Shown here piece by piece: positions 2,704 through 64,000 of a stretch of 64,000 nucleotides of DNA. The DNA comes from a virus: IMG/VR virus record IMGVR_UViG_3300027816_000056; one strand, 5' to 3'. The notes beneath the pieces were generated by a model. The model saw only the letters and a program-made list of their open reading frames with translations. It was not told the origin of the DNA and made no database searches. Position 1 is the stretch's first letter. Every line of letters starts with the position of its first letter. A program made the position numbers and the translations under genes.

Positions 2704-3750
2704 TTATAGCAATCCTGCTAATTTTTTCCATCTGTTAGCTAACTCAAATCCTTCAGACAATACTTGAGTTGTTTCTTTTTTAGGAGCTGTGGTTGCAACT
2801 GGTTTAGATGCATACGACTCTTTAACTACTCTTTTCTTAGTTGCTGGACGTTTGAATGATTCAGCTAACGTTGTAAATACTAATTTTACTTCTCTAGTGT
2901 TTCCTGCACGATCAAAGTTTTCAATTACTTTCATTTTTTGACCTTCATTCAACTCAAAATTGCGGAACAATTTGTTTGTGTAAAGAAGTTTTGCATTAAG
3001 AAGATTAACTTCGTTGATGATGCTAGTAAGTTTTTTAACTGTTCGATAAGCTTCTTCAAGCTCTTCTTTCATTGTTTCAACTTCGCCATCAGTTCCTGCA
3101 GGTACTCCTACTTCTTCTTCAGCATCCATGTCATCTTCACGAAGAATAGCTTCAATAATTTCGTCGATTGATTCATCTAACTCTTCATCTTCGCCTTCTT
3201 CTAATTCTTTGTCATCATCATGATGCATTCCCTCTGGCATTAGATCATCTTCTTCCTCTTCCATTTCTTCAGGCATTCCTGCTTCCAATTCGCGGATGAT
3301 AGATTCTAATTCTAGATCTTCATCATCATGACCATAACCTTCATTGTACTCTGCATTCGCGTCTTCATCTGAAATTGGAGCTTCTTCGCCTGGAAGTTCT
3401 TCACCTCCTAGATCTTCTTCATCTCCACCAGCCATTCCGACTTGAAAATCATAATCTTGACCGCCTACTGTTGCTGACAATGAATCATCAGTCCAAGTAA
3501 AGTCTTCTTCTCCGCCTTCAGCTCCCATATCAGCTCCCATATCAGCATCAGCATCAACACCCATAGTGTCAGCTGCAGCATCTATTTCTTCTTCTTCGCC
3601 TTCGATTTCATTTGTTAGTTTTGTAGCTAACATTCTTTCTAGACGAGGAGCAAAAGCTTCTTGCAGAGCAATTTTTGCGTTTGCTAATGCAGTTTCTTTA
3701 ACAGCATTTGCGTCGGCGATTGCTTGTTTTAGCAAATCTGATTTTGCCAT
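2704..3750 (-). CDS. Prohead core/scaffolding protein
   Basis: Highly acidic coiled-coil protein directly upstream of the MCP, with many I/L-x-E sites. Confidence 0.8.
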   Translation of the reverse strand: MAKSDLLKQAIADANAVKETALANAKIALQEAFAPRLERMLATKLTNEIEGEEEEIDAAADTMGVDADADMGADMGAEGGEEDFTWTDDSLSATVGGQDYDFQVGMAGGDEEDLGGEELPGEEAPISDEDANAEYNEGYGHDDEDLELESIIRELEAGMPEEMEEEEDDLMPEGMHHDDDKELEEGEDEELDESIDEIIEAILREDDMDAEEEVGVPAGTDGEVETMKEELEEAYRTVKKLTSIINEVNLLNAKLLYTNKLFRNFELNEGQKMKVIENFDRAGNTREVKLVFTTLAESFKRPATKKRVVKESYASKPVATTAPKKETTQVLSEGFELANRWKKLAGLL

Positions 3751-3783
3751 AATTGTTTTCCCCTAAATTTTTTTTTTTGGAAA

Positions 3784-3851
3784 TAAGATTATTCGAAATC
3801 TTAATAGAATATTTTATTTGGTATAGACGCTATATAAAGATTGAATAGCGT
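3784..3851 (-). promoter_or_regulatory. Two stem-loops in the 5' UTR of the scaffold-MCP operon
   Basis: TAAGATT..AATCTTA (3784-3803) and ACGCTAT..ATAGCGT (3826-3851) downstream of a variant late promoter near 3860. Confidence 0.45.
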
Positions 3852-3934: not shown

Positions 3935-4180
3935 TTATTTAGAATGCATATCTCGTATGTATTGTAAATAAGAAGCTTTAGAATGTTCTTGCCGTTTAAC
4001 TACGCTAGGCTTGATGTATTCTTTGTGTGCTTTAATTGTTTCTAATACACCTGATTGCTTTACTTTGCGTTTCCATGTTTTAAGTGCAGCTGCTAAATCT
4101 TCTCTACTACTTCCTGGTACATGTACTGCTAATGAATTGCCAGGAACAATCATTTGATGTTGTTTTTGTTTTTTACTCAT
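3935..4180 (-). CDS. rpsU: Phage-encoded 30S ribosomal protein bS21
   Basis: DLAAALKTWKRKVKQSGVL...EYIKPSVVKR..KASYLQ is the bS21 signature, with a Bacteroidota-type C-terminus. Confidence 0.9.
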   Translation of the reverse strand: MSKKQKQHQMIVPGNSLAVHVPGSSREDLAAALKTWKRKVKQSGVLETIKAHKEYIKPSVVKRQEHSKASYLQYIRDMHSK

Positions 4181-4696: not shown

Positions 4697-4736
4697 TTTA
4701 TACCTTAATATAAGTAAATTATGTATTCTATCCAAA

Positions 4737-5114
4737 TTAATTTACATCAAAATATTTATTAAGTCCTTGACCGATACTTTCATATGCCAATGCCATTCTG
4801 TGTTGTGCTTCATTCACTTCGCGAGCTGCATTTTCAAAATCTCTATAATCTTCACTTACTCGTTTAAAATATTTTTTATGTGCTTGATTAGATGCCCAAT
4901 CATCACTTTCAGTCATTATTCTTTCTGCACGTTCTACAATACGTTTAACGCGTTCAACAATTTCTTCCAAGTCACCTTTACCATAAACTGATTCTCCCAT
5001 AGCAGAAAAATTGGCAACTTCTTGTACGAATTGTTGTTTTTCTTCTCTAGACATTGGTTGTGGTTTGTCTTCTAATATTGTTTCCAATATAAACTTTAAA
5101 TTTGGCGTTTTCAT
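4737..5114 (-). CDS. Hypothetical coiled-coil protein (start MKTPNLK)
   Basis: ORF; start at 5114 avoids overlap with the protease gene; ILE leader. Confidence 0.65.
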   Translation of the reverse strand: MKTPNLKFILETILEDKPQPMSREEKQQFVQEVANFSAMGESVYGKGDLEEIVERVKRIVERAERIMTESDDWASNQAHKKYFKRVSEDYRDFENAAREVNEAQHRMALAYESIGQGLNKYFDVN

Positions 5115-43928: not shown

Positions 43929-44951
43929 TTATCCTAAAATTAATGATGATTTATGACAGTCAATTCCTACATTCATCAAAGCCTGCTCTTTAGCCTTAGC
44001 CTCAATCTCAACATCAAGATCTACAACACCATAAGTGTCAGGAAGCTGTAAAATAAAGTCGGCATGAGCTTGCTCCTTGATCTTGCTAAACTCCTTGTAC
44101 ATCTTGGCAAATGTCGGCCACTTCGGCAAATCATCCCAAGCAATGCCGTGCTTATCACAGATACCTTCAATGAGTCGTTGTGCCTCGCGTCGTCGAGACT
44201 CGGAGTAATGTGTGCATTGAGTAACACCATGTCGCTCCCAAGTGCTACGAGCCATAAAAAATGCTTCTTGTTCGGATAAGTCACCAGTATTGAATGTATG
44301 GTGCCAATAGTCAAACGTAATAGGAATTGCAATTTCGGAATGCACACGCTCATACAAATCACGAACTGAATACATGGACGCCTTATCGTCATTTTCTAGA
44401 ACGAGACGCTGTTTAAGAGAATCGGATAAACGATACCAATTCTGAATCCATCGTGCAATAGTCGTTGTCTTATCACCATAAGTCGCACCTACATGTATGT
44501 TAATAAGATTGTCAAAGCTAGGAGCATAACCCATGAGGTCAAACATCTCAGAATGTCGTTCAAGACCAACGATAGAATTCTCAACAACAACTGGATCAGG
44601 ACTACCTAAGATATGAAACGGACCAGGATGTGTAGTAAGACGATGACCATAAGCACGTGCATAATCACCTGCGGCACGTAAATGCTGAGTAATCTCATCA
44701 ATGCCCGGCAAATCTTGTAATTCATAATGATTCCAACGAGGAAATATCTCACTACCAATACGGAATAGACGAATGCCGTGTTGTTCGTTCCATTGCAGGA
44801 TAGGTAACAAGTCTCGTGCATTGGCGAGTGCAATATCCGAAGCAAGTTGCATACCACCAAGTTTAAACTTTCTGTCAATCATTGTGCGCCCGGTACGGAT
44901 GCCTTGTGATGATAATTGCATGTTGATGCAACAATAGCCGTGTCTAATCAT
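43929..44951 (-). CDS. uvsE: UV DNA damage endonuclease
   Basis: GYCCIN, WNEQHGIRLFRIGS, RLTTHPG, NIHVG, LENDD, FDYWHH, HYSES, AHAD, EAKAKE. Confidence 0.93.
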   Translation of the reverse strand: MIRHGYCCINMQLSSQGIRTGRTMIDRKFKLGGMQLASDIALANARDLLPILQWNEQHGIRLFRIGSEIFPRWNHYELQDLPGIDEITQHLRAAGDYARAYGHRLTTHPGPFHILGSPDPVVVENSIVGLERHSEMFDLMGYAPSFDNLINIHVGATYGDKTTTIARWIQNWYRLSDSLKQRLVLENDDKASMYSVRDLYERVHSEIAIPITFDYWHHTFNTGDLSEQEAFFMARSTWERHGVTQCTHYSESRRREAQRLIEGICDKHGIAWDDLPKWPTFAKMYKEFSKIKEQAHADFILQLPDTYGVVDLDVEIEAKAKEQALMNVGIDCHKSSLILG

Positions 44952-56776: not shown

Positions 56777-57001
56777 TTATGCCAACTCACATAGTATTGC
56801 AAATGCTTCTCGGCTGTCTGGCAATGTGAAGTCTGCTTCTATACCTAACTGCCTCAGGAGGCCGTCAATGGCACACCAGCGGCTTCTTGCTGACTGATGC
56901 AGTGGAGACTCTTTGCCATAATCTCTTTGCGACTTCTTGCACTCTAGGAATGCTGCTGCTTCTACGGCTTGGATGGTTGCGATCATTTCTTTCTTTGTCA
57001 T
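56777..57001 (-). CDS. Early hypothetical protein
   Basis: AGAGAGAGTATG leader. Confidence 0.7.
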   Translation of the reverse strand: MTKKEMIATIQAVEAAAFLECKKSQRDYGKESPLHQSARSRWCAIDGLLRQLGIEADFTLPDSREAFAILCELA

Positions 57002-57051
57002 ACTCTCTCTTTTTATATTGGTTACTTGATTACTTTGGTTTGCTGGGTTAA

Positions 57052-57255
57052 TTAGTCTAACTTGCTATCTGCATAAGCCGCAATCATAATTGCTGAGATA
57101 AGTGTCGTTATAGCTCCTACCGGTACTACTAGGAATGCTACTAGGATGCTTATTGACTTAAGTGCTAAGAATGCTACTGCCGTTGCTGTGGTTAATGTTA
57201 ACACTGTAACTGCGATTGCTAATAATGCTGCGATAACTTTAATTGAATTTTTCAT
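57052..57255 (-). CDS. Early small membrane protein (2 TM)
   Basis: Hydrophobic; follows a promoter repeat. Confidence 0.7.
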   Translation of the reverse strand: MKNSIKVIAALLAIAVTVLTLTTATAVAFLALKSISILVAFLVVPVGAITTLISAIMIAAYADSKLD

Positions 57256-57357
57256 ATCTCTATCTTTTTAATTATAAAATAAAGATACCGATAATATCAA
57301 TGCGAGTCAACCTTTTTGCAAACTTTTTTCGAACTTTTTTTGACGTGCTTTTATATA

Positions 57358-57416
57358 GTCCACCAGGGCCGACATTTTAGCGTCAACCCCAGTTTCCTAT
57401 TTGAGAGATATGATTT
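57358..57416 (-). promoter_or_regulatory. 3'-UTR module A: CATATCTCTCAA plus hairpin
   Basis: Directly after the AAA ATPase stop; stem GGGGTTGACG/TGTCGGCCCT. Confidence 0.7.
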
Positions 57417-58358
57417 CTATTCTACCGAGATGATTTGTTCTGCTACCATCTCCTCAGGATTGTCAAAGCCCATTGCACATATCCTTGCTGCTTTGATGAA
57501 GCTTCTGAGATTAACTTCAATGCCGGCATACTTTGCATCCAGGCTCTTCATAATCTCCAATGCCTGCTGCTTCGCTGCCAAAGGAATGCTACGCTCCATG
57601 CTCTCCATCAATTGCTCCATGCGCTGGAACATTTGGGTGGTGTTCATTGAGATGTCTGCTACAAAGCTACGGCTTCGGATTGCTTCATCTAATCGGCTTT
57701 GACTGATGTTGCTAATGAATATGATGCGACCTGTAAACTCAAAGTGAGCTGGTACCGGGTTGCCCCACTCGTCTTTAAGAGGCTTGCTTGAGATATAAGA
57801 TATCTTGCGTGTGTCATAGCTATCCAGAGCCGCTTTGAGGATGTTCACTGCATCATCGTCTTTGAATACAGAGTCACAGTCATCCAACACAACTATCTTG
57901 TCGGAGTTCTGATATAGCGTGATAAACAATCCGGCTGCGGTAGCACGACCTTTAAAGTGAACAAAGTCTGAGGACTCCTTCAAGCCCATTTGTCTGAGCG
58001 TGTCTTTTACTAGGTGAGTCTTGCCGACACCTGCCATACCGGTAAGCACTAAGCTAGGTTGAATGCCTCGCCCTACCATTTTAGTCAGACGCTCCAAGTT
58101 AGAAAACATCACAGCTGGGTCACGCTTCTCAATCACATTGAGGAAAGACATCTTAGCGGGTGCTGTAGCCTTTGTGGACTTAGGTGCATCAATTCTTGTA
58201 ACACGACCGTTGGGTGCTACTAACAATTGCTGCTGATTCTTCTCAGCATTCAATAGCTGGATGTGTCGGATTGAATCCTTAGGAGCAAACTCTCCTGTTG
58301 CTACACACTTTGCCATTAACTTGCCTTTTACTCTTACTGCTTCAAATACTCTCATCAT
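57417..58358 (-). CDS. AAA+ ATPase
   Basis: Walker A GMAGVGKT, Walker B VVLDD, IIFISN, AIRSR arginine finger. Confidence 0.88.
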   Translation of the reverse strand: MMRVFEAVRVKGKLMAKCVATGEFAPKDSIRHIQLLNAEKNQQQLLVAPNGRVTRIDAPKSTKATAPAKMSFLNVIEKRDPAVMFSNLERLTKMVGRGIQPSLVLTGMAGVGKTHLVKDTLRQMGLKESSDFVHFKGRATAAGLFITLYQNSDKIVVLDDCDSVFKDDDAVNILKAALDSYDTRKISYISSKPLKDEWGNPVPAHFEFTGRIIFISNISQSRLDEAIRSRSFVADISMNTTQMFQRMEQLMESMERSIPLAAKQQALEIMKSLDAKYAGIEVNLRSFIKAARICAMGFDNPEEMVAEQIISVE

Positions 58359-58440
58359 ATCTCTTATTTTTTTAATTTATATAAATTTAATGAATTTATC
58401 AATGCGATCCTAATCTTTTGCAAACTTTTTTTAAACTTTT

Positions 58441-58647
58441 TTATAGGCCGGAAAACTCCCCGTCGACGAACAATAAAGCTTCTCCCGGCTCTAATCCAGC
58501 AACTGCGAGGTTGAGGTATCCGTCATTAGGATCCGAGATGTTGTCCATATCGAGGATAGCAAAGTCGACTCCTTGCTGTTCCAATATTGTTATAAACCCT
58601 TTTGCCCGGAAGGCTTCTGCTGTTGCGATGATGTCTTGTCTTGTCAT
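58441..58647 (-). CDS. Early hypothetical protein
   Basis: AGAGATATG leader. Confidence 0.7.
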   Translation of the reverse strand: MTRQDIIATAEAFRAKGFITILEQQGVDFAILDMDNISDPNDGYLNLAVAGLEPGEALLFVDGEFSGL

Positions 58648-58666
58648 ATCTCTGATTGTTTCTCAC

Positions 58667-58718
58667 GTCCTTAAGGGCCGACATTTCTGCCGACCCTGGA
58701 CTATGTTGAGAGATATGT
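58667..58718 (-). promoter_or_regulatory. 3'-UTR module B: CATATCTCTCAA plus GAAA-tetraloop hairpin
   Basis: AGGGTCGGCA-GAAA-TGTCGGCCCT; homologous to module A. Confidence 0.72.
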
Positions 58719-59171
58719 TTACTCTGCTAGTGTCGCCTCATAGGCTGTGTCATGCGGATTGTCTCCTCGCTCCAACTCTACTACATCTGTCAAGATGCCT
58801 TCTTCCGCTGCTTCTTGTTGAGCCTGAATGAATCCATCTTCTTCCTCAACAACAAACTCATCAAGTGCACTCGTCACATGCTCCATAATAGCTCTAGTGT
58901 CAACATCAACTCTGTCTAGGCGGATTGTGTTATTGTAATCCAATTCAAATTCGGCGCTGGCGGTGTCAACAAAATCATCAGAGTTGTAATCTAAGCATCG
59001 CTCAATTTTATCTGCAATTTCCTCTGCCAACTCTTGCGTTATGCCCAACTTCGTTTCGACAACAATTTCAGGCTCCAATTGCTGGATAAGTGCAATTACA
59101 TTGTCGATTGATACTACTGAGGTTAGCGCCTTTACTCCCTCTAACTGTGCAATTAAATTTTCTTTTTTCAT
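58719..59171 (-). CDS. Early acidic hypothetical protein
   Basis: Very D/E-rich; follows a promoter repeat. Confidence 0.75.
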   Translation of the reverse strand: MKKENLIAQLEGVKALTSVVSIDNVIALIQQLEPEIVVETKLGITQELAEEIADKIERCLDYNSDDFVDTASAEFELDYNNTIRLDRVDVDTRAIMEHVTSALDEFVVEEEDGFIQAQQEAAEEGILTDVVELERGDNPHDTAYEATLAE

Positions 59172-59255
59172 CTCTCTTATTTTTTAATTATACTATAAAT
59201 TTAATAAATTAATCAATGCGTGTCAAGCATTTTGCAAACTTTTTTTAAACTTTTT

Positions 59256-59420
59256 TTATCCGAAGAATCCTCCGGCGGATAGGATCCAAATGAAGATTGC
59301 TGCATCTATCAACTTATAGAAGATGTTGTGTTCTCCGCTTTTAGGGCGTCCATGGAAGTGTGCTGTGATCAACAATTGAAGTCCTATTAGAACTAGTAAA
59401 ATGATTTGTGGTGCTCCCAT
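59256..59420 (-). CDS. Small 2-TM membrane protein (54 aa)
   Basis: MGAPQIILLVLIGLQLLITAHFHGRPKSGEHNIFYKLIDAAIFIWILSAGGFFG. Confidence 0.65.
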   Translation of the reverse strand: MGAPQIILLVLIGLQLLITAHFHGRPKSGEHNIFYKLIDAAIFIWILSAGGFFG

Positions 59421-59428
59421 CGTGTTAA

Positions 59429-59695
59429 TTAATTAAGGTTAATACTGTTATTGATTGCTTCGCGGCTCAAATCCATCGCCGTAGTCTTGCTTGTCTTTGC
59501 CTCAGCAAACTTTGCCAATACCGCAGCCATCTCCATTACTTCTCCGCGGGATACGGCTTTCATCAACATCGGTATGATTAGGCTCAATGCTGCGAAATCT
59601 TCGTCTCCGGTTATGATTGCTAGGTTCAATGCACTCTCTGCGGATTCATTCATTTGAGCTCCTAGCTCCTGGATCATTCTTCTTAGTTCTTCCAT
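59429..59695 (-). CDS. Early hypothetical protein
   Basis: AAGAGAGAGATG leader. Confidence 0.7.
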   Translation of the reverse strand: MEELRRMIQELGAQMNESAESALNLAIITGDEDFAALSLIIPMLMKAVSRGEVMEMAAVLAKFAEAKTSKTTAMDLSREAINNSINLN

Positions 59696-59713
59696 CTCTC
59701 TCTTTTTTAGTTA

Positions 59714-59830
59714 TTAATTTAATGATACTGTGTTAACAAACAATACACCGGCTAAATGCTGCTGTAAACGCTTTCTTTCGATTTGCTCTACCTGGAGCTT
59801 TGCTGTGAGTCTTTTAAATGGCTTTTTCAT
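59714..59830 (-). CDS. Small early protein (38 aa)
   Basis: MKKPFKRLTAKLQVEQIERKRLQQHLAGVLFVNTVSLN, immediately after a promoter repeat. Confidence 0.55.
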   Translation of the reverse strand: MKKPFKRLTAKLQVEQIERKRLQQHLAGVLFVNTVSLN

Positions 59831-59908
59831 ATCTCTTAATTTTATAATATAAAGATAAGGATAATATCAATGCGTGTCAAGCATTTTCCGGAAAAAGTTT
59901 CAGAAAAG

Positions 59909-60649
59909 TTACAGGTATTGTTCTAGCAATTGGATTCCTGGTAGTTTAGCCAATGCCAACTCGGCACCACGTACCAGCTGTCTTGCGCGCTCATTGGTTA
60001 CTCCCATCTCCTCAGCAATCTGATCCATGCACTGTGGATACTCCCTGCCAATGCCATAAAAGCGTGTAATAGCTTCGGCCTGCTTCGGCTTGAGTTGGTT
60101 CAATGCTCTTTGTAGGTCATACTGGAGATCTGCTGTGTCACGTGCTGATTTGGTGCTGTCTGCTGCCAAATAACGATCCGCATAGGTTTCTTTGTTCTCG
60201 TCATCACCTACCGGAGCATGGATGCTTTTAACGTATTGCTCTTCGGTTGCTGTCTTGTGGCTAGGGATCCTAACAACTCTGGAAAGGTCATTCAATGCCT
60301 TTTGCAACTCAGCACGGATATACCATACCGCAAAGGTAATGAACTTGACACCTTTATCCGGATTGAAACGCTCTGCGGCTTCGAACAATCCAATATTACC
60401 AAAGGCAATAAGATCCTCCAAAGGCAATCCCATTCCCTGATACTGCTTGGCTACTTGCACCACAAAGCGAAGGTTGGCTTCTACCAAAGCATTAACAGCC
60501 TTTCGGTCTCCTGCTGCCGCTGCCGCAGCTACTGCCTTCTCTTGTTCTCGGGTGAATGCGGCAGGCTTCTTAATCTCCTGCATATAGCGTAATGTGCTTG
60601 CTACATCTGTTACTATTGCTCCTGTGCTTACGTGAATCTTCTTTCTCAT
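59909..60649 (-). CDS. Sigma-70 family RNA polymerase sigma factor (RpoD/RpoS-like, regions 1.2-2-4)
   Basis: LVEANLRFVVQVAKQYQ, DLIAFGNIGL, KFITFAVWYIR, VRIP, IAEEMGVTNERARQL; likely start MRKKIH. Confidence 0.93.
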   Translation of the reverse strand: MRKKIHVSTGAIVTDVASTLRYMQEIKKPAAFTREQEKAVAAAAAAGDRKAVNALVEANLRFVVQVAKQYQGMGLPLEDLIAFGNIGLFEAAERFNPDKGVKFITFAVWYIRAELQKALNDLSRVVRIPSHKTATEEQYVKSIHAPVGDDENKETYADRYLAADSTKSARDTADLQYDLQRALNQLKPKQAEAITRFYGIGREYPQCMDQIAEEMGVTNERARQLVRGAELALAKLPGIQLLEQYL

Positions 60650-60650
60650 C

Positions 60651-60752
60651 TTATTTTTGTAACTCGTTAACTGATTGGACAATTATTTTAACGCAACTGG
60701 CGATCATCAATACTAGGACCGCCATTGCCAATGTGCATGCTACTACTTTCAT
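60651..60752 (-). CDS. Small hydrophobic protein (33 aa)
   Basis: MKVVACTLAMAVLVLMIASCVKIIVQSVNELQK; ATGA overlap with upstream gene. Confidence 0.45.
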   Translation of the reverse strand: MKVVACTLAMAVLVLMIASCVKIIVQSVNELQK

Positions 60753-60946
60753 CTTCCTGTGGTTAAGAATAAAAATGATACTCTTACCGGCTCTGCCTGC
60801 TTAGCTCGGTACTCTGCATTCTTGCGTCCCTGCGCTAATGCCTGGTCTACCGTTTTGGTATTCCCTCCTGTCTTTGCATCTCGGGTGAACTGACCCAATA
60901 CTGCTGCTTGTCTTTCGAATCCTGAATTTTTTGCTTTCTTTGCCAT
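60749..60946 (-). CDS. Early hypothetical protein
   Basis: Follows a promoter repeat. Confidence 0.7.
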   Translation of the reverse strand: MAKKAKNSGFERQAAVLGQFTRDAKTGGNTKTVDQALAQGRKNAEYRAKQAEPVRVSFLFLTTGR

Positions 60947-61028
60947 ATCTCTTATTTTTTTATATACTTAAATTTAATGAATTAATCAATGCGTGTCAAC
61001 CTTTTTCCAAGAAAAGTTTAAACTTTTT

Positions 61029-61217
61029 TTATGGAACGTCCTCCGTGTCATATAAATCTAGTTCCGGTGGAACACCTTCATCTTCCCGGGTAATGCAATC
61101 TACATATCCTTTGCCTTCAGCTACCATTAACCATGCCTCTTCTTCAGTCTCAGCTTCGACTTCATAACTCTGAATCAACGTTGCCGGGATCCTTTCTTCA
61201 AACTTAAACTTCTTCAT
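61029..61217 (-). CDS. Early acidic hypothetical protein
   Basis: YEVEAETEEEA motif common in small phage proteins. Confidence 0.7.
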   Translation of the reverse strand: MKKFKFEERIPATLIQSYEVEAETEEEAWLMVAEGKGYVDCITREDEGVPPELDLYDTEDVP

Positions 61218-61220
61218 ATC

Positions 61221-61439
61221 CTACTTATTAAATGGTTGTACAACTCCGCACTTTAAAAGTGCCTCAATCAAATCCGGGCGAGGCACAAAGCCATTAGGCA
61301 TAAATTGATCCAGGTAAGTGTCTGTGCATGGCTCTGTTGCATCAAATTCCTCATTGAACTCAGCTTCCAAAAGTCCTTCCAAAAACATGGCAATGTCTGC
61401 TGCCATTAAGATGTCAACTTTAAATTCTCTTTCTCTCAT
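61221..61439 (-). CDS. Early hypothetical protein
   Basis: Follows a promoter repeat. Confidence 0.7.
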   Translation of the reverse strand: MREREFKVDILMAADIAMFLEGLLEAEFNEEFDATEPCTDTYLDQFMPNGFVPRPDLIEALLKCGVVQPFNK

Positions 61440-61500
61440 TTTTCTCTCTTTTTAAATTAATACTTAAATATAAGGAATAAATCAATGCGATCCTAATCTT

Positions 61501-61746
61501 TTAGCAACTTTTTTCAGACTTTTTATCTAAAGCGTCTAACTCATCAACTTTGCGATCCAATGCTGCTGCATACTTACGATCCGCTTCCTCATTCGGAATG
61601 AATCCAATATTGTAATCTGAGTTTGGATTGATAATGTAACGGCCACCCCGGTCTGCTTGTACAACAACATGCTGAGGATCAAATATCTCAATCATTGATC
61701 CAAATTCTACCTTCTTTGTAATTGTGTTTGTGAATTTTACTCTCAT
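61501..61746 (-). CDS. Early hypothetical protein
   Basis: Follows a promoter repeat; C-terminus runs into the next repeat. Confidence 0.7.
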   Translation of the reverse strand: MRVKFTNTITKKVEFGSMIEIFDPQHVVVQADRGGRYIINPNSDYNIGFIPNEEADRKYAAALDRKVDELDALDKKSEKSC

Positions 61747-61804
61747 ATCTCTCTTTTTAAATTAATACTTAAATATAATGATTATTTCAATGCGATCCTA
61801 GCAT

Positions 61805-61975
61805 TTAGGCAACTTTTTTTACAACAAAAGAATATTTGTAATAGTTACGTTCCCCCGGCGTTAAATGTGCCCGGCGACTTTTAGCATAAGCTTTTGCTTC
61901 TTCGTGATTTGCAAATTCTTTAACTACCCGGCCGGATTCTCCTATTCGGCCTCCTTTTTGAATTACTTGTGTCAT
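61805..61975 (-). CDS. Small early protein (56 aa)
   Basis: MTQVIQKGGRIGESGRVVKEFANHEEAKAYAKSRRAHLTPGERNYYKYSFVVKKVA after a promoter repeat. Confidence 0.65.
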   Translation of the reverse strand: MTQVIQKGGRIGESGRVVKEFANHEEAKAYAKSRRAHLTPGERNYYKYSFVVKKVA

Positions 61976-62028
61976 TTTTCTCTCTTTTTAAATTAATACT
62001 TAAATATACCGATTATTTCAATGCGATC

Positions 62029-62223
62029 CTAATTTTTAGGCAACTTTTTTTCTAAATTTTTTCTCTTTGCTTTTAGTCGCTTTATTTCTAACCGGCGGAG
62101 ATATGGTCCGTGATTATACGTGCTACCCGCCCAAGCCATTGTCCAAACTGTCTTGTCAGTTTTCAAAAACTCAATGCGGTTGTCAATTTTTACAATCAGA
62201 TTCTGGATTTCTTGCTGTGTCAT
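62029..62223 (-). CDS. Early hypothetical protein (start MTQQEIQ)
   Basis: GAGATATATG leader at 62223. Confidence 0.65.
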   Translation of the reverse strand: MTQQEIQNLIVKIDNRIEFLKTDKTVWTMAWAGSTYNHGPYLRRLEIKRLKAKRKNLEKKLPKN

Positions 62224-62233
62224 ATATCTCAAT

Positions 62234-62386
62234 TTACCAATTATACCATCTAAAACTTTCACTGCCACATTTGCATTTAAATGCTCTTGCCCATTTGCCT
62301 AAACTAAAATTATAAACTCGCTGGGTTACTTTGCCGCAATTATAACATTGGCACTTTTTGATTTCGGTTTGATGATTTCTACTCAT
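62234..62386 (-). CDS. Small zinc-ribbon early protein (50 aa)
   Basis: MSRNHQTEIKKCQCYNCGKV...FKCKCGSESFRWYNW after a promoter repeat. Confidence 0.65.
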   Translation of the reverse strand: MSRNHQTEIKKCQCYNCGKVTQRVYNFSLGKWARAFKCKCGSESFRWYNW

Positions 62387-62478
62387 ATCTCTCTTTTAAT
62401 TTTATAATATAAAGATAAGCATTTTTAGAATGCGTGTCAAGCATTTTCTAAAAAAAGTTGTAAAAAAGTTTGCTGGCC

Positions 62479-62835
62479 CTAAAAGCCAACAAACCCTTGT
62501 TTCAAATCTAATGCTAAATCCTCAGCTATATCCTTAAGCCGGTAATAAGGAGCATCTTCTATTTCTTCCTCAACTCGTCTAGCAACTTCTGCTACGTCAA
62601 ACCCCGATCCAAAACCATGGCATAATACAGCCTTCTGGATTTTTATCATTGCCGGAGTAGCTGCATATTCCCAATCTGCATCGCCATCAACATCACTCGC
62701 ATCGATCCCATTGGTCCACATTTCAAATACTTTAACTCTAACGGCTTCTGCAACTCGATCATTGTGGTCATACATTGCCTTGCTCCAAGGCTTAACAATT
62801 TCAATTCCGTACTCAATTTTTGCTGCTTTTTTCAT
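62479..62835 (-). CDS. Early hypothetical protein
   Basis: Follows a promoter repeat. Confidence 0.72.
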   Translation of the reverse strand: MKKAAKIEYGIEIVKPWSKAMYDHNDRVAEAVRVKVFEMWTNGIDASDVDGDADWEYAATPAMIKIQKAVLCHGFGSGFDVAEVARRVEEEIEDAPYYRLKDIAEDLALDLKQGFVGF

Positions 62836-62918
62836 ATATCTCTCTTTTTAATTTATATAAAGATAAGGAAAAGATCGATGCGAGTCAACCTTTTCCTAAA
62901 CTTTTTTTAAACTTTTTT

Positions 62919-63149
62919 TTATATTCGATTAATATCAATAATATCAATATCTTTTATTACTGCTAATAACGCGCCGCTTGAACTACGTAATCCGCTATCA
63001 AATTTCGTCCAGCCCTTATCGCCTCTCGTTACACTGTACTCTTTTAATTTAAGTACTTTTGTTACAAGACCGTGATAAGGACATGTATACGTAACATTGT
63101 ACAATTTTCCGCATGCTAACCTAGCTCCTAATAATTCTTTTTTCTTCAT
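62919..63149 (-). CDS. Early hypothetical protein
   Basis: Follows a promoter repeat. Confidence 0.68.
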   Translation of the reverse strand: MKKKELLGARLACGKLYNVTYTCPYHGLVTKVLKLKEYSVTRGDKGWTKFDSGLRSSSGALLAVIKDIDIIDINRI

Positions 63150-63239
63150 ATCTCTTATTTTTTAATTTATATAAAGATAAGCAAAATAATAATGCGATCC
63201 TAATTTTTTAGCAACTTTTTTTAAACTTTTTTTTTACAG

Positions 63240-63580
63240 TAAAAAAGGACCCGGGAATAAGAGAGAGAAACCCGAGTCCTAATATTACACAGCCGCAACC
63301 AAACCAACGCTTTACAGAAAGATGGTTTAGCCTGAAACGCGTTGCGGCTGCCTTACCTAACCTGAGAGATATGTTGTAAGCCTTGCACTTACTCGGGAGC
63401 ATCTAACCCTCCACTTGATTTTTAAAAGCAAGAGCCGGAGGTGTTAGCAAGTCGCGCTCCGAAGTGCCCTAAATGCTTGTGGTTACCGGCTCTAAGATCT
63501 AAATATTATCGTATCGATCCTTTTGGTCGCCTCTCTTACGGCATTTGGTTGGATCAACCTTCCTTCTTATTTACACTTAT
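63240..63580 (-). ncRNA. Candidate structured ncRNA (~340 nt) with loops antisense to early-gene leaders
   Basis: Own promoter (TTTGGTTGGAT..CATATTATA, 63578-63615); stems GATCC/GGATC, AGAGCCGG/CCGGCTCT, CTTAC/GTAAG, CAGCCGCAAC/GTTGCGGCTG; terminator GGACTCGGG..CCCGGGTCC-T6; no convincing ORF. Confidence 0.7.
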
Positions 63581-63614
63581 ATAATATGAAAACTATTTCT
63601 AGAATCCAACCAAA

Positions 63615-63985
63615 TCTAAAAATCAATCTAAAAATAACGCATATTGGACTAAAAATAGCCGGGGAGATACCGGTATCCATCTAGAAATAGCGTCTCTGTA
63701 TAGCTAGGTCAGCAAATGTAACGTGTGTATAGTGCAGGTTCTTCTAAAAATAGACTGGCTTTGGACTAAAAATAAAACCCGGGATTCATCTAAAAATAAG
63801 GTGATTTCGTCTAAAAATAGCCAGGGAGGGGAATATTCATCTAAAAATAGAACCACTTCGTCTAAAAATAAGTACTCTGTATAGCTAGTGATCTGAACCA
63901 AAACCGCACTACGCACGCATACGCACTACATGATGCGTACGCTCAATAGCTAGTGATCTGAACAAAGCATCTAAAAATAACCCGG
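63615..63985. repeat. Iteron-like array of CTAAAAATA(G/A)
   Basis: Copies at 63616, 63628, 63649, 63681 (variant), 63744, 63766, 63790, 63811, 63841, 63862, 63971; plus ATAGCTAG(TGATCTGAAC) three times. Confidence 0.85.
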
Positions 63986-64000
63986 GGAGGTGAGGCCATG

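Follow-up and report, generated by a model that had tools for sequence, protein, structure and literature searches.

A modular structured RNA family of bS21-encoding phages carries elements complementary to the shared leader of early genes

RNAIII and RsaE of Staphylococcus aureus are structured RNAs in which pyrimidine-rich unpaired loops, some of them in a terminator hairpin, pair with the purine-rich start regions of mRNAs. Phages use related devices: the c4 antisense RNA of P1 and P7 and the CI RNA of P4 are processed, structured RNAs whose loops pair at or before the ribosome-binding site and shut phage genes down. In T4, post-transcriptional shut-off of many early mRNAs is carried out by proteins, the repressor RegA and the endonuclease RegB, which act through translation initiation regions. 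Enterobacterial 3′ETS-leuZ and CpxQ are Hfq-dependent small RNAs derived from a tRNA spacer and a 3′ UTR, respectively, and hok-type type I toxin mRNAs carry a 3′ element complementary to their own 5′ translation region. Here we compare these systems with an RNA encoded by a large phage whose early genes share one leader.

The RNA is encoded in a 64,000-nucleotide (nt) stretch of viral DNA, hereafter the window, from an uncultivated freshwater phage of the large, bS21-encoding kind, described freshwater clades of which are predicted to infect Bacteroidota. The phage encodes its own bS21, and the bS21 homologues found are all phage-type proteins of 81 amino acids; a UvdE scan of genome contigs, run as a host search, gave no relative. 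Comparison with 50,697 phage records, by blastn for the unit encoding the RNA and by megablast for 24 kb, returned no match, and the sigma-factor and ATPase proteins share at most about 35% identity with those records. The bS21-encoding phages that this one resembles have been described as myoviruses (PMC9723584); no regulatory RNA came up for the group, and the words ‘non-coding’, ‘noncoding’ and ‘intergenic’ are all absent from that article.

The unit lies on the minus strand, where a transcript of approximately 334 nt (63241–63574) is predicted to start 7 nt after a −10-like box and to end at a U tract, in agreement with the original prediction of an ORF-poor unit of about 340 nt running from a promoter-like signal to a terminator. 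All sequences quoted in that prediction were confirmed at their positions by re-reading the window. No ORF in the unit is conserved across relatives, and two frames were rejected as coding: a 22-codon TTG frame that is not kept, with indels of 1, 4 and 5 nt inside it in relatives, and a 64-codon ATG frame (63402–63208) that is not kept and reads through the terminator. Whether the unit belongs to a known family, a point raised with the original prediction, was addressed with the Rfam 15 covariance models, which gave 0 matches in the window at the gathering threshold and, at E values up to 10, chance-level matches alone (17.5 bits or less); ARAGORN found 0 tRNA or tmRNA genes in the window. The fold z-score of the unit is −2.0.

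More than 40 distinct copies of the unit were found in IMG/VR and freshwater metagenome contigs, the metagenome contigs adding 35 copies beyond the IMG/VR relatives. Wherever flanks were read, the copies lie upstream of the same phage sigma-factor gene (59909–60682 in the window). A generic scan of IMG/VR for the terminator-loop pattern described below was swamped by chance matches, with hairpins only in members of this sigma-linked clade.

At the head of the unit, on the minus strand, a −35-like hexamer TTGGAT (63604–63609), which is part of a conserved box GGTTGGAT and is kept in relatives, is followed after 17 nt by a −10-like hexamer TATTAT (63581–63586; extended, TATTATATAAG). More than 25 relatives keep the combined pattern GGTTGGA-N17-19-TAT(T/A)ATATA at the unit head; the window has a single occurrence of it, and its −10-like box is unlike the TAnnTTTA type found in the eleven early cassettes described below. 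At the other end, a hairpin with a 10-bp G+C-rich stem (63247–63279, minus strand) precedes a U6 tract read from the sequence (63241–63246, minus strand), as in an intrinsic terminator, with an atypical, conserved 15-nt loop; this loop, UUUCUCUCUCUUAUU, is found at 63256–63270, exactly where it had been predicted. A simple consensus scan called neither signal, the −35 box matching at 3 of 6 positions and the loop exceeding the 3–8-nt limit of the scan, and both are assigned because they are conserved in relatives. Since this type of promoter is unique in the 64 kb, the unit could be timed differently from the eleven early cassettes.

Five helices of the RNA show compensatory changes among relatives, in line with the minimum of five stems in the original prediction. 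In an alignment (A4) of two of them, the hairpin hp4 and the terminator stem, 92.6% of cells pair compared with 78.7% in shuffles, and 12 of 17 pairs have changed on both sides, a result reached by 0 of 500 shuffles (slid controls, 31–58%). The terminator stem is 96% paired with 6 of its 10 pairs changed on both sides, as are, across 20 copies, 6 of the 7 scored pairs of hp4.

From 5′ to 3′, with all coordinates on the minus strand, the RNA begins with a leader-like end AAAUAAGAAGGAAGG (63558–63572) that is kept in window-type relatives; in other relatives, the leader at this end continues into the ATG of a small ORF. The 5′ hairpin H1 (63513–63558) has an outer helix UUGAUCC/GGAUCGA, for which relatives show the compensatory variant UUGGUUC/GAACCAA, internal loops with ACCA motifs, and an inner hairpin (63529–63542) whose loop varies among relatives (GUAAGAGA, UUAAG, GCAA and others). 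Module b (63431–63493) consists of helix P1 (AGAGCCGG/CCGGCUCU), with three fully complementary haplotypes among 24 distinct copies, an internal loop UAACCACA/UAACACC that is invariant in relatives, and a variable helix P2 that covaries. Module c (63376–63414), common to L036, L204, L208, L210, L218 and L227, combines a hairpin GGAG-loop-CUCC with a second hairpin GUAAG-UGCAAGG-CUUAC, the stem of which covaries (GUAAG/CUUAC, GUGAG/CUCAC, GUAGG/CCUAC and GAUGG/CCAUC). A purine box UUAGGUAAGG (63351–63360), invariant in 20 of 20 aligned copies, precedes the covarying hp4 (CAGCCGCAAC...GUUGCGGCUG, 63290–63350), after which comes a conserved UGU.

Some structural candidates were set aside. A long-range helix from the apex of module b to module c was dropped in favour of the local hairpin with its four covarying stem variants. 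A mimic of the 16S rRNA 3′ end, comprising GUAAC..ACAAG of module b and AACACCUCC, was rejected in that the CCUCC belongs to helix P1; it is replaced in L009, L019, L021 and L028–L030, and AACAC alone is conserved. The original prediction had cautioned that the H1 loop might kiss the terminator loop. The complementary motif UAAGAGAG is indeed present in the H1 loop at 63531–63538, but it is found in only about half of the relatives. Kissing therefore cannot be the core function, and the unit does not conform to a phi29-type pRNA, in which loop–loop complementarity is conserved in all members; the Rfam search of the window gave no pRNA match.

The content of the unit varies. Some relatives have true tRNAs in or beside it (Rfam searches of seven related loci returned tRNA only), module b occurs by itself between tRNA genes, and in L206, L207 and L227 the anti-leader box described below follows a tRNA-like element. 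In seven relatives, the unit encodes a single-helix hydrophobic membrane peptide of 27–29 amino acids just after the leader, followed by hairpins with the CU-rich loop of the terminator; a small hydrophobic ORF is present in the L019–L030 group and absent from the window and window-type relatives, and Pfam searches with the ORF inserted in L013 and the first-unit ORFs of relatives gave no match. Some relatives carry two CU-loop hairpins in tandem. First units with the same kind of leader can also lack this hairpin (L031, none; L032, L034 and L036, box only or nothing), and the loop is therefore not indispensable. Judged by comparison among copies, the unit is a real, conserved, structured, non-coding RNA, and it is modular and precursor-like, a modularity newly recognized here. 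We rate it as a new RNA family.

The early genes of the window form a minus-strand array (56777–63165) with leaders of the form (A)AUAAGAGAU-AUG or AAGAGAGA(U/A)-AUG. Leader-bearing starts are at 63149, 62835, 62386, 61975, 61746, 61439, 60946, 59695, 59171, 58647, 58358, 57255 and 57001, and also at 59830. The original prediction counted about 15 such genes; AAUAAGAGAU or AAGAGAGAU precedes 14 of the 17 ORF starts in 57001–63149, and a leader of the early kind precedes none of the 59 later starts listed. The minus strand of the whole 64 kb contains AAGAGAG 11 times, with 9 copies in 57011–63537. Early-type leaders are present in all relatives checked; a clade with a different leader is represented by L074, AAAAAGAAAUA-AUG. 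The early region is arranged as an array of about eleven near-identical promoter–leader cassettes, and a dense TCTAAAAATA repeat array lies just upstream. The leader accompanies start codons that lack a promoter as well (58647, 62223), indicating an RNA-level signal and not an operator.

To our knowledge, Bacteroidota do not use Shine–Dalgarno (SD) pairing. The ribosomal anti-SD of Bacteroidia is sequestered in a pocket of bS21, bS18 and bS6 (PMC7797042, PMC9976891), and the 16S tail of Flavobacterium johnsoniae, ACCUCCUUUCU (PMC7797042), is not complementary to the leader. The ribosome’s own anti-SD therefore does not explain the leader, and the idea that the leader serves as SD to the host anti-SD is not supported.

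Two elements of the RNA are antisense to this leader. The terminator loop is antisense to AAUAAGAGAGAGAAA, covering approximately −14 to −3 of the early leader and leaving the AUG free. It is predicted to be unpaired (P = 0.96) and follows the nearly invariant pattern U(2-3)(CU)(3-4)UAUU, 13–17 nt long: 24 hairpins retain it with hardly a letter changed while their stems covary, and it is invariant in 20 aligned copies. A plain terminator would not predict a near-invariant loop on varying stems, which suggests that the loop is functional. The second element is the box CAUAUCUCUC (63364–63373 on the minus strand; GAGAGATATG on the plus strand), antisense to GAGAGAUAUG, that is, to positions −7 to +3 of the leader, including the start codon. 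Its sequence and position were predicted correctly. The hairpin loop in which it had been placed is not supported by the comparative data, which make it a single-stranded linker between two hairpins; in relatives it reads CAU(A/G)UCUCUC(AA) in an A-rich single-stranded context.

The complementarity is specific to early starts, as the original prediction expected. Mean duplex energies with early start regions are −10.6 kcal/mol for the loop and −10.7 kcal/mol for the box, compared with −3.8 kcal/mol with the 59 later genes. For neither element did any of 300 composition-preserving shuffles match the early-start energies. Individual early duplexes comprise 8–12 bp (−9 to −16 kcal/mol). Cofolding gives a stronger net gain for early start regions (−8.8 versus −4.0 kcal/mol) and engages the box CAUAUCUCUC. 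In the main clade, loop and leader are both nearly invariant, leaving no covariation to score. The few cases from outlying clades, box CAUGUCUCUUA with leader UUAAGAGAUAUG in L031 and CAUAUCUCUAAA with UUAGAGAUAUG in L032/L034, are suggestive of a box that tracks the leader.

A putative seed that is predicted to be single-stranded, is conserved and is specifically complementary to the initiation regions of its putative targets is a feature that the RNA shares with trans-acting loop-seed regulators. Like RNAIII and RsaE, it is structured, keeps its loop sequence while the stems vary, and is complementary to the start regions of several putative targets. Unlike them, it has a predicted host phylum without SD pairing, carries extra conserved modules, and would address the phage’s whole own early set via one shared leader instead of SD sequences; it has no sequence or Rfam relationship to either RNA.

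Two early genes on the minus strand also have such a box after their stop codons. One, CAUAUCUCUCAA at 58717–58706, comes right after the stop of a 150-amino-acid acidic protein and is followed by a G+C hairpin (58673–58717 for box and hairpin); the promoter-less leader of gene 58647 lies downstream. This box is kept in relatives, and in L002 it is CAUGUCUC together with a GAGACAUG leader, an A-to-G change in the box accompanied by a U-to-C change in the next leader. The other, again CAUAUCUCUCAA (57412–57401) followed by a G+C hairpin (57363–57412), lies after the stop of an AAA ATPase gene and is kept behind the homologous stop codon across the clade. The stop-codon boxes probably act in a similar way to the elements of the unit, either in cis on the next leader, which is at least as likely, or as a processed, 3′-end-derived RNA with a 5′ seed. 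The arrangement resembles that of 3′ETS-leuZ and CpxQ, with a seed placed immediately after the 3′ end of a tRNA or after a stop codon, and next to it a terminator hairpin; there is no homology, and Hfq dependence belongs to the enterobacterial RNAs.

The best reading of these features, to which we assign a probability of about 0.45 on sequence grounds, is that the RNA base-pairs with the early leaders and thereby controls early-gene translation. The transcription unit, first in the early region, would make a multi-helix non-coding RNA of approximately 334 nt with two pyrimidine-rich elements exposed as single strands, the terminator loop and the linker box. Both would pair with the uniform purine leader of about 15 early mRNAs, covering the ribosome-loading region or the AUG, and early-gene translation would fall as the stable RNA accumulates. 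The outcome would be an RNA counterpart of early shut-off by T4 RegA and RegB, an analogy of function alone, those being proteins. The c4 and CI RNAs are likewise phage-encoded and structured, with loops complementary to boxes at start regions; they act on one operon in lysogenic immunity, whereas the phage here is of a large lytic type with about 15 separate transcripts as putative targets, and there is no homology. Of the multi-target antisense RNA originally predicted, the conserved, structured, non-coding unit, its near-invariant unpaired loop and the early-start-specific complementarity are retained, and the simple unit is replaced by a modular, precursor-like RNA. Against repression through the leaders, it would seem wasteful for the strongest promoter to yield the RNA along with its targets unless timing or stability differ, the duplexes are short, half of the unit, with its conserved internal loops, is left unexplained, the stop-codon boxes are explicable in cis with no trans-acting RNA, and the CU loop is missing from several relatives that have the same leader.

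Action purely in cis is unlikely in our view. The elements would pair with the leader of their own transcript, by folding the 3′ end back on the 5′ end, or with the next leader on a read-through RNA, coupling or insulating translation as in hok-type fold-back or classical translational coupling, and the ORF-less unit of the window would be a derivative of a small-peptide mRNA that retained its 3′ regulatory end. This would account for the seven relatives in which a peptide ORF follows the leader and the same CU hairpins come after it, for the acidic-protein box, which lies approximately 60 nt before the promoter-less leader that it can pair with and has the compensatory pair in L002, and for the unit’s own 5′ end, where AAUAAGA can pair with UCUUAUU of the loop. 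The L019–L030 relatives resemble hok-type mRNAs in having a small hydrophobic-peptide ORF and then a complementary 3′ element. The window unit has no such ORF, as a type I toxin mRNA would, no antitoxin RNA was seen, and its 3′ element fits all of the early leaders. Window-type units have no ORF to regulate, yet they retain both loop and box; moreover, the loop has a longer match to true early leaders (9–12 nt) than to the unit’s own 5′ end (7 nt), a strong terminator stands between the elements and the next leader, and the downstream leaders of L015, L016, L029 and L030 match the box poorly.

The conserved parts to which antisense pairing gives no role, namely three invariant internal-loop motifs (UAACCACA/UAACACC in module b and two ACCA copies in H1) as well as the invariant box UUAGGUAAGG, would find one if the RNA were a scaffold or decoy for a host or phage protein, leader complementarity being secondary. 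We regard this as quite unlikely. Candidates for binding to the pyrimidine loops and ACCA internal loops would be ribosomal protein S1, a different pyrimidine-binding protein or a factor acting on tRNA 3′ ends; solitary copies of module b inside tRNA arrays, the tRNAs or tRNA-like elements embedded in several units, and the presence of one to two CU loops, resembling the repeated protein sites of sponge RNAs, point in this direction. However, the leader match is exact in order, beyond composition (0 of 300 shuffles), the box has CAU opposite the start codon, and the data name no partner protein.

It is very unlikely that the RNA activates or protects early mRNAs, with the loop pairing upstream of the AUG and either tethering them to an RNA-bound factor or shielding their 5′ ends from nucleases, such that early messages would be favoured in a host with ribosomes that disregard SD sequences. 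The loop does pair at −14 to −3 only, the position of an SD, with the AUG free, the Bacteroidia anti-SD is sequestered by bS21, bS18 and bS6 (PMC7797042, PMC9976891), the phage has its own bS21, and the promoter closest to consensus, which heads the early region, would drive the RNA. The box, however, covers the start codon and could only inhibit, and the 16S-like AACACCUCC is part of helix P1, with no conservation in L009 or L019-type copies. A more elaborate scheme is a long shot: the core modules might dock on the 30S subunit or a 30S-bound factor, making the RNA a surrogate anti-SD adaptor whose loop would pair, at the SD position, with the leader of each early mRNA. The first messages would then have a private initiation route while the host anti-SD is sequestered, and the start-codon box would switch that route off later.

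Finally, a DNA-level origin, with leader and inverted copies as sites of one DNA-binding regulator or by-products of cassette recombination and the fold incidental, is highly improbable: about eleven near-identical cassettes do invite inverted duplications and the dense TCTAAAAATA array suggests DNA-binding sites nearby, but the leader tracks start codons even without a promoter, and in divergent phages the inverted copies lie precisely in loops of covarying hairpins or behind conserved stops, which indicates selection on RNA.

Even if the antisense reading fails, the unit is a new, widespread and modular family of structured RNAs with invariant internal loops, sometimes linked to tRNAs. The finding bears on how Bacteroidota phages separate early from late translation, as the whole early gene set of this phage has a single leader in common, of which conserved antisense copies occur in the same phage at exposed positions of RNA. 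Functional pairing would mean that a single small RNA, together with the 3′-end boxes, controls about 15 separately transcribed genes at once, and would constitute an RNA-only device for early shut-off or timing.

A putative RNA unit of about 334 nt (approximately 63574-63241) lies ahead of the first gene in the 6.4-kb early region (56777-63165), on the minus strand, where nearly all window genes are located. As read in the sequence, it opens with a conserved box GGTTGGAT containing a -35-like TTGGAT (63609-63604), followed 17 nt later by TATTATATAAG with a -10-like TATTAT (63586-63581). About 334 nt past this promoter-like box, there is a terminator hairpin: a 10-bp G+C-rich stem (63279-63247) encloses the 15-nt loop UUUCUCUCUCUUAUU (63270-63256), and U6 follows. 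The promoter is of its own kind, found once only in the 64 kb, and differs in type from those of the early cassettes. The unit has a G+C content of 0.43-0.47, versus 0.25-0.36 in its surroundings, and its predicted fold is slightly more stable than that of shuffled copies (z = -2.0). Its head and terminator are conserved and its two short frames are not conserved in relatives, in line with the original prediction of an ORF-poor unit running from promoter to terminator. A 64-codon ATG frame (63402-63208, minus strand) is preceded at 5 nt by a GGAGG-like sequence and continues through the terminator; relatives lack this frame or retain just 8 codons of it (L036), so it is very likely no gene. 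An Rfam search, suggested as a check for an unrelated known RNA, brought no family to its gathering threshold and, at E up to 10, nothing beyond chance-level matches, and ARAGORN found neither tRNA nor tmRNA in the window. Directly upstream of the unit's promoter, at the window's end, lies a dense short-repeat array (63613-63990) with at least 12 copies of (C/G)(A/T)TCTAAAAATA, organised in larger units of 14-41 nt. Related loci, too, have TATTTTTAGA arrays of this sort ahead of their first early promoter (L013 2560-2630, L028 ~4700-4990, L031 3850-3950). Candidate roles are those of an origin, a packaging site or a set of regulator-binding sites.

Using the phage sigma factor (59909-60682; Pfam Sigma70_r2, r4) and an AAA ATPase (57417-58358) as anchors, we found 75 IMG/VR loci, and more than 20 distinct contigs carry a homologous unit upstream of the sigma gene. 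Its conserved parts are the head, with promoter box and leader-like start, and the terminator tail; between them the build is modular. Searching with the pattern of a single module added 7 viral and 35 metagenome loci (28 of the latter distinct). Among these is L216, which 14 substitutions separate from the window over the 421 nt compared (63200-63620). The window encodes an 81-aa bS21 (3935-4180, with PF01165), and the phage group matches the bS21-encoding phages classed as myoviruses, with predicted Bacteroidetes hosts and a Flavobacterium CRISPR spacer targeting one phage (PMC9723584). The words non-coding, noncoding and intergenic are absent from the text of that paper. The window also carries a UvdE (UV-damage endonuclease) homologue (43929-44951, minus strand; PF03851, E = 2e-58), for which no close relative turned up when bacterial genome contigs were scanned for exact words.

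Comparison of these relatives defines a series of parts along the minus strand. H1 (63558-63513) has outer-helix variants UUGAUCC/GGAUCGA and UUGGUUC/GAACCAA. Module b (63493-63431) comprises helix P1, whose three haplotypes, seen across 24 copies, are all fully complementary, an invariant internal loop UAACCACA / UAACACC, and helix P2, which covaries. Module c (63414-63376) has two hairpins, the second with four compensating stem variants and a conserved UGCRAGG loop. The pyrimidine-rich box CAUAUCUCUC (63373-63364) had been proposed to be presented by a stem-loop; the comparative data instead place it in a single strand, followed by an invariant UUAGGUAAGG (63360-63351) and hairpin hp4 (63350-63290). 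In hp4 and the terminator stem, positions are 92.6% paired across 20 aligned copies, versus 78.7% in shuffles, and 12 of 17 pairs changed on both sides, which 0 of 500 shuffles reach, although related sequences may exceed such shuffles without any structure. Pairing falls to 31-58% when the partner is slid; that drop, like the variety of pair types, argues that the helices are real. In 24 such hairpins from relatives, stem pairs at positions 3-11 show up to five pair types and the loop stays constant as U(2-3)(CU)(3-4)UAU(U/C)U; several relatives (L019, L025, L027, L028-L030) have two CU-loop hairpins in tandem. The window's loop is predicted to be unpaired (P = 0.96). Terminators need no particular loop, so among internal evidence the constancy of the loop speaks most strongly for an RNA-level role.

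Both elements are antisense to the purine-rich early leader, (A)AUAAGAGAU or AAGAGAGA(U/A), which stands before 14 of the 17 ORF starts in the range 57001-63149 and before none of the 59 later starts listed. Of the 11 copies of AAGAGAG on the minus strand of the window, 9 fall within 57011-63537. Most early genes have their own promoter-like cassette, yet the internal genes 58647 and 62223 have the leader without a promoter, which ties it to the start codon and not to the promoter. The loop is complementary to leader positions -14 to -3, an SD-like position, and the box to -7 to +3, AUG included. Duplexes of either element with early start regions range from -9 to -16 kcal/mol, with means of -10.6 and -10.7, whereas later genes average -3.8; in 300 shuffles of either element, the observed mean was never matched. 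In the early cassettes themselves (57250-63235), TTGACA or TTAGGAT is followed ~20 nt later by a TATCTTTA box. The corresponding box of L043, a distant relative, reads TATCTTTG, the Bacteroidota -7 consensus TAnnTTTG, which fits a Bacteroidota host for the phage.

The simplest reading is RNA-RNA pairing of loop and box with the early leaders. The box could only inhibit initiation, because it covers the AUG; the loop could inhibit or tether. We rank repression of the early gene set in trans first, at a probability of roughly 0.45, because the best matches are the true leaders and the unit's promoter type is unique in the 64 kb. Speculatively, the phage sigma factor might serve this promoter and so impose a delay. 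In a few cases from outlying clades, the letters after CAUAUCUCU track the local leader (...UUA with UUAAGAGAU in L031; ...AAA with UUAGAGAU in L032/L034). Two observations count against trans repression: loop, box and leader are too invariant in the main clade to covary, and CU loops are absent from the first units of L031, L032, L034 and L036 though the leader is the same.

The elements may instead act in cis, which we consider improbable. This would fit boxes CAUAUCUCUCAA, each with a G+C hairpin, directly behind the minus-strand stop codons of an acidic protein (58717-58706) and the AAA ATPase (57412-57401), copies of which are kept behind homologous stop codons throughout the clade (>20 relatives). 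The former can pair with a promoter-less leader ~60 nt downstream, and in L002 (10333-10406) the box variant CAUGUCUC accompanies the downstream leader GAGACAUG, a compensatory pair. Peptide-encoding relatives fit as well: in L019-L023, L028-L030 and L039, promoter and leader are those of the window but stand before a single-helix hydrophobic peptide of 27-29 aa (64 aa in L039), with the conserved RNA modules behind it. The 27-29-aa hydrophobic ORF directly after the leader, with the shared 3' modules following, is counted in seven relatives. In L013 a 60-aa ORF terminates inside the start of H1. The window's unit has no hydrophobic-peptide ORF, and that ORF-less units keep both loop and box is a further reason for placing trans repression first.

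A protein scaffold or decoy RNA is somewhat less probable still; it would account for the invariant internal loops, which the antisense model leaves idle. An activating or adaptor role has a low probability, and an explanation at the DNA level is the least likely of all.

Relatives vary mainly in the middle of the unit. Some have an extra module, GACGGGGUCCGGG...CCCGGCGGAUCG, with no counterpart in the window. L010 has a true tRNA-Met (CAU; 3715-3788) within its first early unit, placed between module b and the box, and in L206, L207 and L227 ARAGORN-negative tRNA-like elements occupy that place. Module b is also found by itself, flanked by tRNA genes (L203 9907-10039, L211 128-351, L212 6815-7176, also L233), with surrounding tRNA-like elements that have AGTCAGG...CCTGACTA ends. 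This arrangement suggests that module b may be an independent RNA released by tRNA processing and the unit a precursor cuttable by the same enzymes; cleavage would leave the box near a new 5' end. Separately, L013 (3046-3550) has a 138-aa ORF (3107-3523), without a Pfam match, inserted into the 3' side of its CU-loop hairpin and flanked by a 21-nt direct repeat (TCTCTCTTATTTCCAGCACCC); it looks like a mobile-gene insertion with the hairpin as target.

By comparison with Rfam, the unit belongs to no described family, and our literature searches turned up no precedent for a single RNA directed against the shared leader of a whole early set in a phylum without SD-based initiation. Its working principle resembles that of loop-seed RNAs pairing with ribosome-binding sites, of c4 RNA from P1 and CI RNA from P4, and of small RNAs derived from 3' ends or tRNA spacers. 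In function, it would do with RNA the same job as RegA/RegB of T4.
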